The notes under the pieces were generated by a model, which did no database searches, was not told the origin of the DNA, and saw nothing but the letters and a program-made list of their open reading frames with translations. From the IMG/VR virus record IMGVR_UViG_2531839528_000015: a stretch of DNA of 32,429 nucleotides, one strand, 5' to 3'. Origin of the DNA: a virus (taxonomy: Duplodnaviria; Heunggongvirae; Uroviricota; Caudoviricetes). Within the stretch, counting starts at the first letter, position 1. Every line of letters starts with the position of its first letter. This document shows positions 5,712 to 10,769 of the stretch, in pieces. A program made the translations under genes and the position numbers.

Positions 5712-7934
5712 TTGGCTGTTCAATTCGCTTATCCGTGGAACGTCCCACGGTCGGCAATCTCCAGCCCATACCTTACTTATGAGCAACAGCATCGCCGCGA
5801 CCGTATGTTCGCGGCTTTGCTGCATGCAAAAAAGGTGCTTTCTCTCCAGCCCGACTGCGTGCGGTTAGATGTTTATCGCACTGCTGCGGTGCTGGAACAA
5901 AATCAGGGTAGTCAACGAGCCAATGCATTTTTAATCAGCTTCTGCAAAAAGGCATTGCCGCGTCTTGAACTGGTCGCAAAAAAATACGAATGCGCTGGTA
6001 TCAACAGCAAGGTATCAACCGCTGTTTTTGGAAGTCATTTTGATACTCAGCAAATGCAATATCTGTCGTCACGCATGGTTAATATGGTCGCCCGATATAA
6101 CCGTCTCCCGGACATGTCGCGCGCTGATGTTGACCTGTTGGCCGCTGATATTGCTAATTTCATTCGTGGTGAACTTGCCAACATTAATGACCACGGATTC
6201 GGCGAGCTTAAAACGCTGTACACCTGGTATATTCGTGCTGGCTTTATTTCCCTCCAATTCAACGTTATCCCACCACATTGGGAGCGGGTTGAAAAAAAAT
6301 ATGTCGGTGCGGATGAAATCGCACCGGCTATCGCCAAAATGTTTAACGATGGGTGGTGGCGCGGTCGTTTGCGCCGTGTAGCAGCTACGTGGCGCGAACA
6401 CCTGCAAATTGCAGTCGGCAACGTCAGTAAGAAAAAAAACACTTACGCGAGTAAAAACTGCGTGACTGACTGGCGTGAACAAAAGCGCCGCACTCGTGAA
6501 TTTCTCAAAGGTCTGGATCTCGAAGACGAAGACGGCAACCGTATCAGCCTAATTGAAAAATATGATGGCTCAGTTGCTAACCCTGCGATTCGCCGCTGTG
6601 AGCTCATGACCCGCATTCGTGGGTTTGAAAACATCTGTAATGAGCTCGGTTATGTCGGTGAGTTTTACACTCTAACCGCGCCGTCAAAATATCACGCCAC
6701 GACTAAAGCCGGTTACCGTAACAGCAAATGGAGCGGTGCCAGCCCGGCTGACACGCAAAACTATCTAACCGGTATCTGGGCGCGTATCCGTGCCAAACTA
6801 CATCGGGAAGATGTCCGTATTTTCGGTATTCGTGTCGCCGAGCCCCATCACGACGGCACTCCACACTGGCACATGCTGATGTTCATGCTGCCGGAAGATG
6901 TTGAATATGTTCGCTCCATCGTCCGTAAATACGCATGGAAAGAAGACCGCCACGAACTGAAAAGCGATAAATCCCAAAAAGCACGTTTCCACGCGGAGTC
7001 CATTGACCCGGAGAAAGGCAGCGCAACCGGCTATGTTGCTAAATACATTTCAAAAAATATCGACGGTTATGCTCTCGATGGTGAAACCGATGATGAAAGC
7101 GGTGAGCTGCTGAAAGAGACAGCCCCCGCCGTTTCAGCATGGGCTGCGCGCTGGCACATCCGTCAGTTTCAGTTTATTGGTGGTGCGCCGGTGACGGTTT
7201 ACCGTGAGTTGCGTCGCCTCGCTGATACCGAAACCGCGCACGGTCTGAGCGTTGAGTTTGCCGCCGTCCATGATGCCGCCGACGCTGGTGACTGGGCTGG
7301 TTATGTTAATGCTCAGGGTGGGCCGTTTGTCCGTCGCGATGATTTACAGGTGCGCACACTGTATGAACCGCGTACCGAGCTTAATCAGTACGGTGAGGAA
7401 ACGGTATGTATTAAGGGGGTCTACGATTCCTCCATAGGTGCAGGAAGCCCGATTTTAACCCGGCTCACTCAGTGGAAGATTGTTCCGAAGCGTGCTGTTG
7501 ATTTGGCCGTTGACCTTCAGGACGGCAAAGCCGTCCCTCGGAGTTCTGTCAATAACTGTACGGGAAGCGAAAGCGATCCACCGATACTGGATTTAACAAA
7601 ACCACTGAGTCGGCGTGAAAGACGAGAATTGACCAACCGACTCAGGAAGCAAAAGCCAGCAGCACGGCGAAAATTCATCCACGGAACGGATGAGCAAAAC
7701 GCAGCTATAGCTAAAACTATCGATGAGATACATCTGACAACCGGCATTAATATCAGCCGGGGCGAAGCCCTGCACCTGATGGCCGGTGGTAAAAGTTGTT
7801 TTGATGGTAAATGGCTACGCGGAACGGCCAAAGGAGAAATATTTTCCGCAGCACCATCGCATGAGGCTAAAGCTCGGAAAATCCTTAATCGTGTTGCGGC
7901 GATGGCTGAAGCATCAAAACCAATACATGAGTAA
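5712..7934 (+). CDS. A: Replication initiation endonuclease (P2 gpA-like, rolling circle)
   Basis: 740 aa. HWHMLMF motif and the tyrosine pair in YVAKYISKNIDGY. TTG start at 5712 with GGGGG at 5701-5705, tightly coupled to the upstream stop. Confidence 0.88.
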   Translation: MAVQFAYPWNVPRSAISSPYLTYEQQHRRDRMFAALLHAKKVLSLQPDCVRLDVYRTAAVLEQNQGSQRANAFLISFCKKALPRLELVAKKYECAGINSKVSTAVFGSHFDTQQMQYLSSRMVNMVARYNRLPDMSRADVDLLAADIANFIRGELANINDHGFGELKTLYTWYIRAGFISLQFNVIPPHWERVEKKYVGADEIAPAIAKMFNDGWWRGRLRRVAATWREHLQIAVGNVSKKKNTYASKNCVTDWREQKRRTREFLKGLDLEDEDGNRISLIEKYDGSVANPAIRRCELMTRIRGFENICNELGYVGEFYTLTAPSKYHATTKAGYRNSKWSGASPADTQNYLTGIWARIRAKLHREDVRIFGIRVAEPHHDGTPHWHMLMFMLPEDVEYVRSIVRKYAWKEDRHELKSDKSQKARFHAESIDPEKGSATGYVAKYISKNIDGYALDGETDDESGELLKETAPAVSAWAARWHIRQFQFIGGAPVTVYRELRRLADTETAHGLSVEFAAVHDAADAGDWAGYVNAQGGPFVRRDDLQVRTLYEPRTELNQYGEETVCIKGVYDSSIGAGSPILTRLTQWKIVPKRAVDLAVDLQDGKAVPRSSVNNCTGSESDPPILDLTKPLSRRERRELTNRLRKQKPAARRKFIHGTDEQNAAIAKTIDEIHLTTGINISRGEALHLMAGGKSCFDGKWLRGTAKGEIFSAAPSHEAKARKILNRVAAMAEASKPIHE

Positions 7935-8008: not shown

Positions 8009-8028
8009 TACTGTATAAATATACAGTA
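8009..8028 (+). promoter_or_regulatory. LexA (SOS) box overlapping a promoter
   Basis: tactgtataaatatacagta is a near-perfect CTGT-N8-ACAG palindrome. A -35-like TTGCCA sits at 7995-8000 and a strong GGGAGG Shine-Dalgarno at 8036-8041. Confidence 0.7.
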
Positions 8029-8047: not shown

Positions 8048-8230
8048 ATGGTTGGCGAACATTTCAGCCGAACGCAGCAAAAGTGGGCTTGTGTGCAATT
8101 TATTGCCGAGGTATCTCTGATTGCAAACTGCAAGCCATCAGACTTAAAGCTCGCGCTCACTCTCATTGCAGACCTAGCAAACAGCGAGAATAACGAAACC
8201 GAAGATGATAATTTTTATAAGGCTGATTAG
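8048..8230 (+). CDS. Small SOS-controlled protein, possibly the N-terminal part of a Tum-like antirepressor
   Basis: 60-aa ORF directly behind the LexA box and GGGAGG. It ends at TAG 8228-8230 and is in the same frame as the DinI-like ORF that starts one codon later. Confidence 0.45.
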   Translation: MVGEHFSRTQQKWACVQFIAEVSLIANCKPSDLKLALTLIADLANSENNETEDDNFYKAD

Positions 8231-8233
8231 ATT

Positions 8234-8467
8234 ATGAGAATCAATATCACGTTGGATAAAGAGCAAAAAATTAGTCAGGCAACATTGGATGCACTTGAGG
8301 CTGAACTGTACCGCAATCTTCAACCTATTTACCCAAAGACTGCTATCCGAATTCGCAAGGGCTCCGCTAATGGCGTTGAACTAAGCGGTTTGAAACTGGA
8401 CGAAGATAAAAAACGAGTAATGGAAATCATGCAGCAGGTATGGGAGGACGATAGCTGGCTGCATTAA
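8234..8467 (+). CDS. DinI-family protein
   Basis: MRINITLDKEQKISQATLDALEAELYRNLQPIYP...EDKKRVMEIMQQVWEDDSW follows the E. coli DinI pattern (MRIEVTI...DALAGEL...EDKQRISEILQETWE). Confidence 0.8.
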   Translation: MRINITLDKEQKISQATLDALEAELYRNLQPIYPKTAIRIRKGSANGVELSGLKLDEDKKRVMEIMQQVWEDDSWLH

Positions 8468-8469
8468 CA

Positions 8470-8534
8470 AACGCCGCCGGTGCTGAAACTTGCTTTCAGT
8501 GCTGGCGGGGTTGAACAACTCGCACCGCGAGGCG
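8470..8534 (+). repeat. 65-bp stem-loop repeat, copy 1
   Basis: aacgccgccggtgctgaaacttgctttcagtgctggcggggttgaacaactcgcaccgcgaggcg. Begins 3 nt after the DinI-like stop. A 15-bp stem forms only as + strand RNA because it uses G-U pairs. Confidence 0.7.
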
Positions 8535-8662
8535 CTAGTTCTTCCTCTCAAAGTTTCTCGATGTTTTATTGGTTACACACCAGTGATGAATGGGACGTTA
8601 CCTTAGCGGGTTTTATAGTGGCGCTGTGGCAGCGCTAAATAAAATTCATTGAGGGCGATAAT

Positions 8663-8872
8663 ATGCATCGACTACCGGGCGAAATTCCGCAGCACAAAAC
8701 TAAAAGCATCAAACTGATGGCCATCGTTCATCGTCTGCAGCAGATAATGGTCAATGAGAATTTGACACCCGCCGAGCTGGTCGGGTGTGCCGAAATAGTC
8801 AGGGATAATTACGGCAAGCTGGATAGCATCAGCAAGCCGACACATTACTCACCGCCACCACGTCGACCATAG
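8663..8872 (+). CDS. Hypothetical small protein (cassette between the two repeats)
   Basis: 69-aa ORF with GAGGG seven nt upstream of the ATG. Confidence 0.45.
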   Translation: MHRLPGEIPQHKTKSIKLMAIVHRLQQIMVNENLTPAELVGCAEIVRDNYGKLDSISKPTHYSPPPRRP

Positions 8873-8874
8873 AT

Positions 8875-8939
8875 AACGCCGCCGGAGCTGAAACTCGCTT
8901 TCAGGTCTGGCGGGGTTGAACAACGAGCTACGCGAGGCG
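8875..8939 (+). repeat. 65-bp stem-loop repeat, copy 2
   Basis: aacgccgccggagctgaaactcgctttcaggtctggcggggttgaacaacgagctacgcgaggcg. Differs from copy 1 at about 8 of 65 positions and begins 3 nt after the stop of the 69-aa ORF. Confidence 0.7.
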
Positions 8940-9005
8940 TTAGCCGGTCATAGCGTCGCAAATACTTCAACCGTCTGCTGGTTAAATAATTCGAGGTTTT
9001 TGGAC

Positions 9006-9200
9006 ATGCAAAATCCCCTTTCATCGAAAAATGACCCGTTTGCCGATTGGGCAAAGAATCTGACTTTAATGGCTTTAAATAACGACCTGAGCTCTCGCGA
9101 GGTGGAAAGCTACACCGCAAAAATGGTCGGGCAGGCCGGTAAAGATGAGCTATCAGTCGTTATCAAACACCTGTTAAATCACATCAGAATGCGCAAATAA
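9006..9200 (+). CDS. Hypothetical small protein
   Basis: Track ORF 8916..9200 starts inside repeat 2. The internal ATG at 9006 with GAGG upstream is more plausible (MQNPLSSKNDPFADWAKNL...). Confidence 0.4.
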   Translation: MQNPLSSKNDPFADWAKNLTLMALNNDLSSREVESYTAKMVGQAGKDELSVVIKHLLNHIRMRK

Positions 9201-9318: not shown

Positions 9319-9338
9319 TCGCGACAAAACCAGACTAA

Positions 9339-9366
9339 AACCGGCACCCTGAATGCCGGTTTTTTT
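9339..9366 (+). terminator. Rho-independent terminator ending the rightward early/SOS transcription before cos
   Basis: aaccggca-ccctgaa-tgccggtt followed by a six-T run. Confidence 0.7.
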
Positions 9367-9526
9367 ATGCCATTTTTCCGCGAATTTCCCGTTTTTTAGT
9401 CGTGCATGCATCAGGTGCATGGTTTTGCATGCGTCAGTCTTGCCCGTTCTGTCCGTGCGCCGCCAGAGCTAGCGCGGATCCAGAGTTGTCATGCAACTGC
9501 ATTAAAACCGCCCCATAAAGCGGGCA

Positions 9527-9545
9527 GGCGTGGCGGGGAAAGCAT
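9527..9545. other. cos site (19-nt cohesive-end sequence, P2/186 type)
   Basis: ggcgtggcggggaaagcat matches the P2/186 cohesive-end sequence as I remember it (P2: GGCGAGGCGGGGAAAGCAC). It lies in a roughly 400-bp noncoding stretch. Confidence 0.6.
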
Positions 9546-9764
9546 TGCGCGCCAGCAGTGATGCGTAATAATAAAAATTATCCTCTGAGCGCGTCGTGAT
9601 GGCGCTGTCGTGGTCGCTGCTGGTTCGTTGGTGGTCGAGTGTGTTCGTGCGCGTGAGACGCATCTGATGCGTGATGGTGGTGTGCATGGAAAAGCCACCA
9701 GGAGCAGCGGCTTTACAGGAGTGGCAGGATTCAAACTGCTAATTATGTTTCTACTATGATTAAA

Positions 9765-10769
9765 CTAATTTACATGTATGTAGAGTTCACCGTCGCCAGA
9801 CCAATCGGGACACTCTAAAACAAGCCCAAACTGCTTGAATATTTCATCAATGATTATTGTTATCTCCCGAAAATCACCAAAACCTGTAATGTGCTGGTCA
9901 TTAAACTTCCCATAAAGATTCTGAAAAGCAATGCCTAATTCTGATAATTGATATCTTATCTTTGAGTTGGATAGTGTAAGGGATAGCTTTGGATCGTATT
10001 CTTTAATATTGATGTTTAGAGAATGGACATAACCCATCGCATAAGCATAAGAGTTGATGATTAGCCTGATACGTTTTTTTACTTCAAGATACATGTCATT
10101 CAGAGAAATATTACCGTACTTATAACCCCAGATGAGTTTTTCAATCTCGTCAGATACTTCATTTACAACAGTGTCAAGATTCTCTAAAAATAAATCGACA
10201 GTTTCTTGAGGGGCAGACCCCGAAGACATGTAATTAGCGAGATATTCAGACCATGCACGCGTGGCTGAGATAAGAAGCGCGCTACCATACTCGTTGACTG
10301 TAAAGTTTTGGGCTAAGCATGTTAGTAAGTTTTTTTCATGTACGTGCACTAATTCATGGTGAATGCGATGGATGACTGCGAGGTATCCTTCTTCTTTCAG
10401 TTTTAAGAAGCTACCATCATTGAAAAGCTCAACAAAAAAATCAATCGATAGCACAAGGGTATATTCTTCATATAGCCCATCATTGCCAATTTTTGTTACT
10501 AACTGCCCGACGGCTGCGCCCTGTTTGCTATTGGTAAATGAACTAGGGGATTTGTGTTGGTAAGAGGATGTTACCTTTTGAAGAGCTTCACTGAAGTTAT
10601 AGGAAACAATCACGCATTTTAATTTGGAGATATCAAGATTGAGATTCTTTGTTAAAGCTCGGATAGCTTCTAGTGTGAAATTACCGATATTATTTGCTTC
10701 TTGCTCAGTAGCGAAACCTTCGAGGGTTATTTTAAAATCAGTTTCCAAAATATTAATCTCCGCGCCCAT
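9765..10769 (-). CDS. Hypothetical AT-rich 334-aa protein with an HExxH motif, between cos and Q (candidate defence or exclusion cargo)
   Basis: ATG at 10767-10769. Asn/Ile/Leu/Glu-rich translation. HRIHHELVHVHE at residues 134-145 (nt 10344-10358). No Walker A motif and no transmembrane segment seen. Confidence 0.7.
   Translation of the reverse strand: MGAEINILETDFKITLEGFATEQEANNIGNFTLEAIRALTKNLNLDISKLKCVIVSYNFSEALQKVTSSYQHKSPSSFTNSKQGAAVGQLVTKIGNDGLYEEYTLVLSIDFFVELFNDGSFLKLKEEGYLAVIHRIHHELVHVHEKNLLTCLAQNFTVNEYGSALLISATRAWSEYLANYMSSGSAPQETVDLFLENLDTVVNEVSDEIEKLIWGYKYGNISLNDMYLEVKKRIRLIINSYAYAMGYVHSLNINIKEYDPKLSLTLSNSKIRYQLSELGIAFQNLYGKFNDQHITGFGDFREITIIIDEIFKQFGLVLECPDWSGDGELYIHVN

Follow-up and report, generated by a model that had tools for sequence, protein, structure and literature searches.

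Organization of the locus and of the repeat pair

The stretch of DNA analysed here (the window; IMG/VR record IMGVR_UViG_2531839528_000015, 32,429 nucleotides) is a 186/PSP3-like prophage (Peduoviridae), whose host is probably E. coli. Between its replication endonuclease gene A and its cohesive-end site cos, the window carries two copies (E1 and E2) of a structured element of approximately 70 nt, referred to below as E. The local order is gene A, a LexA-box-like palindrome, a tumA-like gene, a dinI/tumB-like gene, E1, a gp37-like gene, E2, and two open reading frames (ORFs) of 64 and 33 amino acids (aa); to the right of the 33-aa ORF are located a terminator, cos, an AT-rich 334-aa ORF on the minus strand, and the portal gene. 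The features of this region, including the two hairpins (H1 and H2) of each copy and the scores obtained with a covariance model of E, are as follows.

5712..7934, plus strand: replication endonuclease gene A, containing an ori-like nick-region motif at 7533-7552
8011..8026, plus strand: perfect LexA-box-like palindrome CTGTATAAATATACAG upstream of the tumA-like gene, at the same position as the p95/LexA site in the 186 annotation
8048..8230, plus strand: TumA-like small gene, first cistron of the SOS operon
8234..8467, plus strand: DinI-like gene (TumB of PSP3; Pfam DinI, 7e-24), with a TAA stop 2 nt before E1
8470..8538, plus strand: element copy 1 (E1), 96.1 bits, tail ending in CTAG
8470-8512: H1 of E1, with core stem 8474-8488 paired to 8494-8508 and loop 8489-8493
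8513 and 8514-8536: single G of E1, then H2 with the Watson-Crick 'CTCGC' allele
8663..8872, plus strand: gp37-like 69-aa gene, phrog_11386 (no assigned function), with a TAG stop 2 nt before E2
8875..8943, plus strand: element copy 2 (E2), 96.1 bits, tail ending in TTAG
8875-8917: H1 of E2, with one G·G mismatch
8918 and 8919-8941: single G of E2, then H2 with the 'CGAGC' tandem G·A allele
9006..9200, plus strand: 64-aa ORF, phrog_2454, which follows E2 and opens the variable segment of this phage
9337..9368, plus strand: classical GC-rich hairpin with T-run, equivalent of the 186 terminator t95b by homology to the t95b-bearing 186 segment
9528..9546, plus strand: cos cohesive-end sequence GGCGTGGCGGGGAAAGCAT, compared with P2 cosR, 585 bp right of E2

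The LexA box has the consensus CTGT-N8-ACAG, and the palindrome upstream of the tumA-like gene would place both element copies in an SOS-inducible operon. Both copies lie after stop codons inside this operon, and the operon structure suggests that they are transcribed; the true operon end is the terminator at 9337-9368, well downstream of both. Inside gene A, the sequence at 7533-7552 (GTCCCTCGGAGTTCTGTCAA) shares 17 of 20 positions with the P2 ori nick region (GCGCCTCGGAGTCCTGTCAA), so that the origin is likely located there, 0.9-1.3 kb upstream of both copies and on the same strand.

A repeat finder returned one direct-repeat family at this locus, comprised of positions 8470-8538 and 8875-8943 (69 nt each, 87% identical, 405 nt apart). 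In both repeats the stop codon of the preceding ORF (TAA at 8465-8467 for the DinI-like ORF 8234-8467, TAG at 8870-8872 for the 69-aa ORF 8663-8872) is followed by a 2-nt gap and then by AACGCC. An earlier note on this DNA had described two 65-bp direct repeats, each starting 3 nt after a stop codon. The repeats are real, with eight differences over 65 nt (57/65), and so is their adjacency to the stop codons; the conserved unit is 4 nt longer, extending to the G of G(C/T)TAG and including a second small hairpin. A degenerate pattern of the 44-nt core matched twice in the 32 kb, both times at the repeat copies, and never in 100 shuffles, and a scan with the covariance model found no third copy in the window.

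Folding energies of the plus-strand RNA are -39.4 and -39.8 kcal/mol for copies 1 and 2 (z scores of -4.8 and -4.1), compared with -33.2 and -30.4 kcal/mol (z scores of -2.6 and -1.9) for the minus strand, and the ranking of the strands is unchanged under DNA energy parameters. These values bear out the plus-strand preference claimed in the earlier note, and its stem of about 15 bp with G-U pairs was found as a core of 15 pairs, three of them G·U in copy 1, extended by AAC/GUU beyond a G·G mismatch. The compensatory change that it had pointed out (U·G in copy 1, A-U in copy 2) is equally real, and the pair next to this A-U is a G·G mismatch in copy 2.

The earlier note had also stated that the repeats have no U-tract and are not classical terminators. 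Neither the sequence nor the terminator scan revealed a U-tract 3' of either copy on the plus strand, which upholds this statement; H1 is followed by GGGGUUGAACAAC, the scan makes no call at E, and the real terminator is the one at 9337-9368 (t95b in 186), so that a plus-strand intrinsic terminator was rejected. The same holds for a Chi-like site (copy 1 has GCTGGCGG within the 3' arm of its H1 where copy 2 reads TCTGGCGG, and five instances of the octamer are found in the window), for a pseudo-ori recognized by the gene A product gpA (the resemblance covers 5-7 nt, on the opposite strand), and for a miniature transposable element (MITE) with terminal inverted repeats, as there is no target-site duplication.

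Structure and covariation of the element

For comparison, 193 copies of E were collected from approximately 175 loci, and 69 non-redundant sequences were aligned for structure statistics. The element is comprised of H1, one unpaired G, and the small H2, and both stems are closed by AAC/GUU. H1 contains 18 pairs, namely the 15-pair core and the AAC/GUU across the G·G, and a loop of 5 nt. Over the 69 sequences it is 95.2% paired on the plus strand and 83.7% on the minus strand, with 157 G·U cells in the alignment against 15 A·C cells. Double (compensatory) changes were seen in six of its pairs, with a covariation score that was reached by none of 500 shuffles and was far above that of slid registers, and three central positions are mostly G·U, with A-U, G-C or C-G as variants. 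On the transcribed strand, compensatory and wobble changes preserve the base pairing of H1. The suggestion in the earlier note that the repeats are RNA elements pointed in the right direction, E being structured and strand-specific as judged from H1 covariation and the G·U excess, which is short of proof.

RNAalifold recovers both H1 and H2 without prior input. H2 consists of AAC/GUU, an internal loop, a C-G pair, two variable pairs, a G-C and a C-G pair, and a triloop. The two variable positions are tandem G·A/A·G in 56 sequences and U-A/C-G in seven, corresponding to a GA-to-UC allele swap opposite a fixed A-G, and the triloop is hypervariable, with 29 different sequences among the 69. H2 is 96.4% pairable, and a second hairpin at this position is plausible.

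Strongly diverged copies, scoring approximately 33 bits, were found after a variant dinI gene ending in …EDDSWR before its stop codon (loci L131, ~10443-10524; L042, ~8548-8629; L024; and L125). These copies, approximately 35% diverged, kept a stem of 14-19 pairs via many compensatory changes, as well as GGGGTTGA and CGAGGC. A remnant copy is located after an orf97-like gene (L044, ~646-726; L133, ~6095), where the apical two thirds of H1 are deleted, with …AACGCCGCCGGTG joined to TTGAAAAACGAC…; H2 and the tail are kept, and an intact gp37-E unit follows downstream.

No known RNA family could be assigned to E, as Rfam gave no matches at gathering thresholds over the whole window. At an E value of up to 10, the only match overlapping the element was mir-998 at 8872-8920 (copy 2) on the minus strand, with 19.5 bits against a gathering threshold of 52 and apparently due to chance, and four other weak matches were located outside both copies. 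Strings of the E sequence retrieved no relevant paper from the searchable literature (one 12-mer matches only five unrelated non-phage papers); older papers on the locus may already describe a conserved border.

Distribution, neighbouring genes and borders

In agreement with the recurrence that the earlier note had proposed to look for, a BLAST search (81 nt) against phage genomes found E in 66 records from Escherichia, Salmonella, Yersinia, Klebsiella and Erwinia, including 186, Wphi and PSP3, where it is mostly unannotated and where it recurs, in P2/186-like phages, at the edge of the cargo. Among 5426 complete E. coli genomes, 452 carry E, in a median of one and a maximum of two places per genome, and every place that was sampled fell within a P2-like prophage, in the interval from gpA to the portal gene. 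Both copies are present in E. coli strain Res13-Sevr-PER07-33, where copy 1 is 100% identical over 81 nt. Four of the 490 E-bearing places are on plasmids, which may be phage-plasmids or contain plasmid-inserted prophages. A scan of one genome per species found E only in Enterobacterales, besides four apparent chance matches. A REP- or ERIC-type repeat scattered through host genomes, the outcome that the earlier note had named as fatal to its reading, is ruled out by the copy number of one or two per genome and by the confinement to P2-like prophages; E is a family of P2/186-like phages of enteric bacteria.

The position of E varies among these phages. In 186 it is preceded by the orf97 stop and followed, 24 nt further on, by terminator t95b; downstream of A-orf91, Wphi and the P2-type prophages of E. 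coli have it after a gp37-like ORF, the gp37+E unit being common to the window and P2-type phages; and PSP3 has two copies in the same arrangement as the window. The reference P2 genome (NC_001895, 26500-33593) has no copy of E and no gp37-like gene, and its leftward tin-old cargo directly abuts orf91; E is therefore dispensable for the growth of P2. Most gpA-carrying relatives from Klebsiella, Vibrio and Burkholderia are also without E. Between phage genera whose gpA is only ~38% identical at the aa level, E is 82-85% identical at the nucleotide level.

The association of E with the end of the preceding gene is tight: the stop codon starts 5 nt before the AAC in 165 of the 193 copies. Three unrelated upstream families were found, gp37-like (ending in …PPPRRP, TAG stop), dinI-like (…DDSWLH, TAA) and orf97-like (…SILDN, TAA). 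The first two have their stop 2 nt before E, and the orf97-like genes 8-11 nt before, with further in-frame stops at the canonical position. The orientation of E is always that of the operon, and the distance to the next start codon is 60-120 nt, so that there is slack on the downstream side only, which suggests a coupling to the end of the upstream cistron. The [gene+E] units occur single or stacked, as dinI-E-gp37-E in 17 loci and as gp37-E-orf97-E in six, and another order was seen in which orf97 and a hairpin-deleted E precede gp37-E. Where the earlier note spoke of a small-ORF cassette bounded by the repeats, a gene+element unit does exist; it is one of only three recurrent units of this kind, and does not represent a general cassette system.

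The 119-nt spacer between E1 and gp37 (8544-8662) occurs only in two-copy arrangements, where it follows three different upstream E-bearing genes. It was rejected as part of a mobile cassette, since it is missing upstream of gp37 in the single-copy gp37-E phages and since homology starts at the gp37 ATG in 40 of 70 cases. Coding through E by stop read-through was rejected as well. The frame is open through the element, but a run of 24 codons without a stop would arise by chance in roughly one case out of three; the stops vary (TAA, TAG, TGA), the 186-type copies have two to three of them in frame, the hypervariable triplet falls on codon positions 3-1-2, and copy 2 has no counterpart of the 52-aa ORF at 8480-8638.

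Pairwise homology between copies ends sharply on both sides, on the left at position 0 to -3 and on the right at +68 to +70, which is the G of GTTAG. The flanks cluster into 13 upstream and 36 downstream contexts, found in many combinations and hence reassorted. Among 630 pairs of downstream contexts, homology ends on the right at +67 to +70 in 495 and runs beyond +71 in only 36, and at least 30 unrelated downstream cargo contexts join E at one exact nucleotide. The junctions on the cos side are scattered, with homology to the cos-proximal segment resuming at many different points. Several upstream contexts, and likewise several downstream ones, are combined with the H2 allele TCGC; this four-gamete pattern points to crossovers inside E. 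As a short conserved block between non-homologous, reassorted flanks, E is a module boundary, or linker, of the kind described for phages. The earlier note had offered 'recombination scars' as one explanation of the repeats; its idea of a module boundary agrees with the sharp edges and reassorted contexts, and the term scar is wrong for a motif under structural constraint.

In many phages, E forms the left edge of the cos-proximal variable region, a locus that was reportedly treated as the 'TO region' by Nilsson et al. in 2004 and Odegrip et al. in 2006. E occupies the same locus as the cos-proximal defence hotspot of P2-like phages: in the passages of Rousset et al. (2022; PMC9122126) that were consulted, the gene A-cos locus is presented as a hotspot and major reservoir of anti-phage defence systems, the way in which the cargo is exchanged is left as an open question, and a route through the cos ends and a second homologous event is proposed. 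The searched passages of that paper make no mention of a conserved structured element at the left border of the hotspot (PMC9122126). E is a concrete candidate for the second homologous site of such an exchange: a discrete, structured and highly conserved element of 70 nt at the left edge of the region, joined at single-nucleotide precision to dozens of cargo blocks. As such, it provides an anchor for mining this cargo and a candidate recombination joint.

Possible roles of the element

The reading that we favour, and to which we give about an even chance, is that E is a cis-acting RNA element of mRNA 3' ends which, at the left border of the cos-proximal hotspot, also anchors homologous recombination. 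A cis-acting RNA is favoured because E is strand-biased, shows compensatory changes, is always in sense orientation and lies close to stop codons, all of which were observed, the RNA-level activity itself being what we infer from them; the anchor role is favoured because E is the only conserved non-coding block at this position, with sharp borders and reassortment. Within the rightward early/SOS operon of P2/186-like Enterobacterales phages, E would be transcribed, and its sense strand would fold into two adjacent hairpins 2-11 nt from the stop of a small accessory gene. At the mRNA level these hairpins may be a 3' barrier or a site of processing, by which the upstream cistron is delimited, stabilised and kept insulated from the downstream cargo. 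With no more than 15 nt between E and the stop codon, an attenuating effect on translation termination in the upstream gene is also possible. In the DNA, E would be the anchor for homologous recombination on the left, with cos as the other anchor. E would then be a candidate for a new cis-regulatory RNA motif, outside Rfam, and prophage induction is under the control of the SOS/antirepressor operon in which it lies; if E should prove to be a stabiliser hairpin only, the addition would be modest.

The proposed RNA role has precedents in host and phage. The intercistronic REP/BIME hairpins of E. coli are mRNA 3' stabilisers, for example between malE and malF, and Liang, Rudd and Deutscher reportedly found in 2015 that a REP within ~15 nt of the stop codon down-regulates translation of the upstream gene. 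E resembles these hairpins in being a stable, strand-specific extragenic hairpin without U-tract, located in an operon just after stops (2-11 nt). In contrast to REP elements, which are present in tens to hundreds of copies, E is not dispersed; it is also unrelated in sequence, is bipartite (H1 and H2) over its ~70 nt, and marks a recombination border. With the RNase III hairpins of phage T7, where the upstream message is stabilised by the hairpin that remains at its 3' end, E shares its intercistronic location and its repetition within one phage genome, but the near-regular 18-pair H1 with its 5-nt loop is without the internal loop typical of the T7 sites. In the 186-like prophage BTP5 of S. 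Typhimurium D23580, the tum transcript is the most abundant, and the authors suspect post-transcriptional control (PMC7067206); this abundance is compatible with an RNA role of E, and is not specific evidence for it.

Several observations weigh against this reading. In 186, E lies directly upstream of t95b, a functional terminator, which makes a separate 3' stabiliser look redundant. The sense strand is also the strand that would be displaced if gpA nicks the plus strand, so that strand bias alone cannot separate RNA from single-stranded DNA. The razor-sharp right junction, compared with the fuzzy junctions on the cos side, is not readily explained by homologous recombination and selection. 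Most loci were retrieved with patterns inside the element, which inflates the conservation of the pattern-constrained columns, although in two viral scans the tail and H2 were unconstrained and each H1 arm was free in one scan. Beyond H1, covariation did not rise above shuffles: this holds for H2 in the 69-sequence alignment; a pseudoknot joining the CUYGY loop of H1 to GCGAG further downstream is 95.7% pairable, but was rejected as its covariation did not exceed that of shuffles and the variants with a CUUAC loop do not fit it; and a closing helix AACGCC/GGCGUU, likewise rejected, is pairable without covariation, its G13-to-C variants being uncompensated.

An unlikely alternative is that E is a pure DNA linker, without molecular function, which persists as recombination within it shuffles modules. 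Under the modular theory of Susskind and Botstein, and in comparisons of HK97, HK022 and HK620, conserved linkers are said to lie at the module junctions of lambdoid phages, and like these boundary sequences E is a short conserved block at gene boundaries. The sharp borders, the reassorted flanks and the growth of reference P2 without E would all be expected of a linker. What would not be expected are the compensatory changes in the H1 stem, the tenfold excess of G·U over A·C, a hypervariable loop between fixed stems, and a fold that survives in copies ~35% diverged. E is thus unlike the lambdoid linkers in being structured, covarying and strand-biased, and it occupies one specific locus of Peduoviridae and not many junctions.

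Improbable, although it would represent a new gene-acquisition mechanism in phages if true, is a hairpin or single-strand recombination site of the attC or IS200/IS91 type, at which cargo is captured site-specifically at the 3' G of GTTAG. The enzyme could be the phage Int, the host XerCD or the HUH nuclease gpA, E being a functional analogue of attC without the integron integrase IntI; we know of no IntI in P2/186-like phages. Such a site would explain why some 30 unrelated and independent cargo junctions fall on the same nucleotide while those on the cos side are scattered, and the stacking of [gene+E] units in different orders, including the arrangement with the remnant copy, is in line with it. 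Like attC sites such as the VCR of Vibrio cholerae, E directly follows the stops of promoterless small ORFs and has a precise downstream junction; its ends AAC...GTTGAAC / GTTAG resemble the attC core GTTRRRY, and its termini TAACAAACGCC...GGCGTTA match the VCR ends. R'-like GTTGAAC and GTTAG are present, but the left ends (CAAAC, AGAAC or ATAAC) misfit RYYYAAC and are complementary to the right end only in AAC/GTT, and the bases past TTAG are without RRY preference. Moreover, E forms two separate hairpins instead of one bulged hairpin, has neither an unpaired central spacer nor extrahelical bases, and folds better on the top strand than on the bottom one. Nor is the cargo flanked by E on both sides as in an attC array: a locus has at most two copies, E is present on both sides only in the case of gp37 or orf97 units, and cargo is bounded on the left only. 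In the window, the termini of copy 1 (8465-8480 and 8527-8538) read TAACAAACGCC … GGCGCTAG (GGCGTTAG in most copies), compared with TAACAAACGCC … GGCGGGCGTTA at the ends of VCR, a match that could be chance or convergence; the VCR attC oligonucleotide sequences used were those of PMC2095811 and PMC6125998.

Somewhat more doubtful still is that E serves as a terminator or insulator of leftward, minus-strand transcripts, for instance the P2 old-tin mRNA, shielding the replication and early genes from antisense transcription. The cargo is often leftward-oriented, and the minus-strand hairpin is followed by U-rich tails of the GUUUGUUAAU, GUUCUCUA or GUUUGUCAUGUUU type. On the minus strand, however, the stem has two to three A·C mismatches and is clearly less well conserved in its pairing; the terminator scan made no call for it, and H2 and the tail would be left without a role.

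There is very little probability that E is a single-strand initiation signal (primosome or primase) for lagging-strand synthesis on the strand displaced during gpA rolling-circle replication. In favour of it, E shares its strand with the ori nick motif, from which it is 0.9-1.3 kb away in the 3' direction; single-stranded DNA, too, can form stable G·T and tandem G·A pairs; and P2 gene B is annotated as required for lagging-strand synthesis, with no loading site known to us. Reference P2, however, replicates without E, and most of the gpA-carrying relatives from Klebsiella, Vibrio and Burkholderia lack it; such a signal would also leave the tight stop-codon association unexplained, and two copies are present in some phages. 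Finally, a put-like processive antiterminator RNA, to which E is comparable in architecture only (two hairpins one nucleotide apart, as in HK022 put), is scarcely credible given that E in 186 is immediately upstream of t95b, the annotated terminator of the p95 transcript, and that Rfam gave no match.

Two minor observations concern the DNA around cos. The element and cos have two octamers in common, TGGCGGGG with the cos of the window and GCGAGGCG with P2 cos (GGCGAGGCGGGGAAAGCAC), a match of doubtful significance as both regions are rich in GGCG; the shared positions are 8501-8510 / 8906-8915 and 8526-8533 / 8931-8938 in the element, compared with cos at 9528-9546. Beyond cos, the 334-aa ORF (9765-10769, minus strand), located before the portal gene, has a GC content of ~0.37 and matches phrog_11743 (no assigned function); neither Pfam nor PADLOC gave a match, and the ORF has the appearance of an acquired moron or a candidate defence gene.

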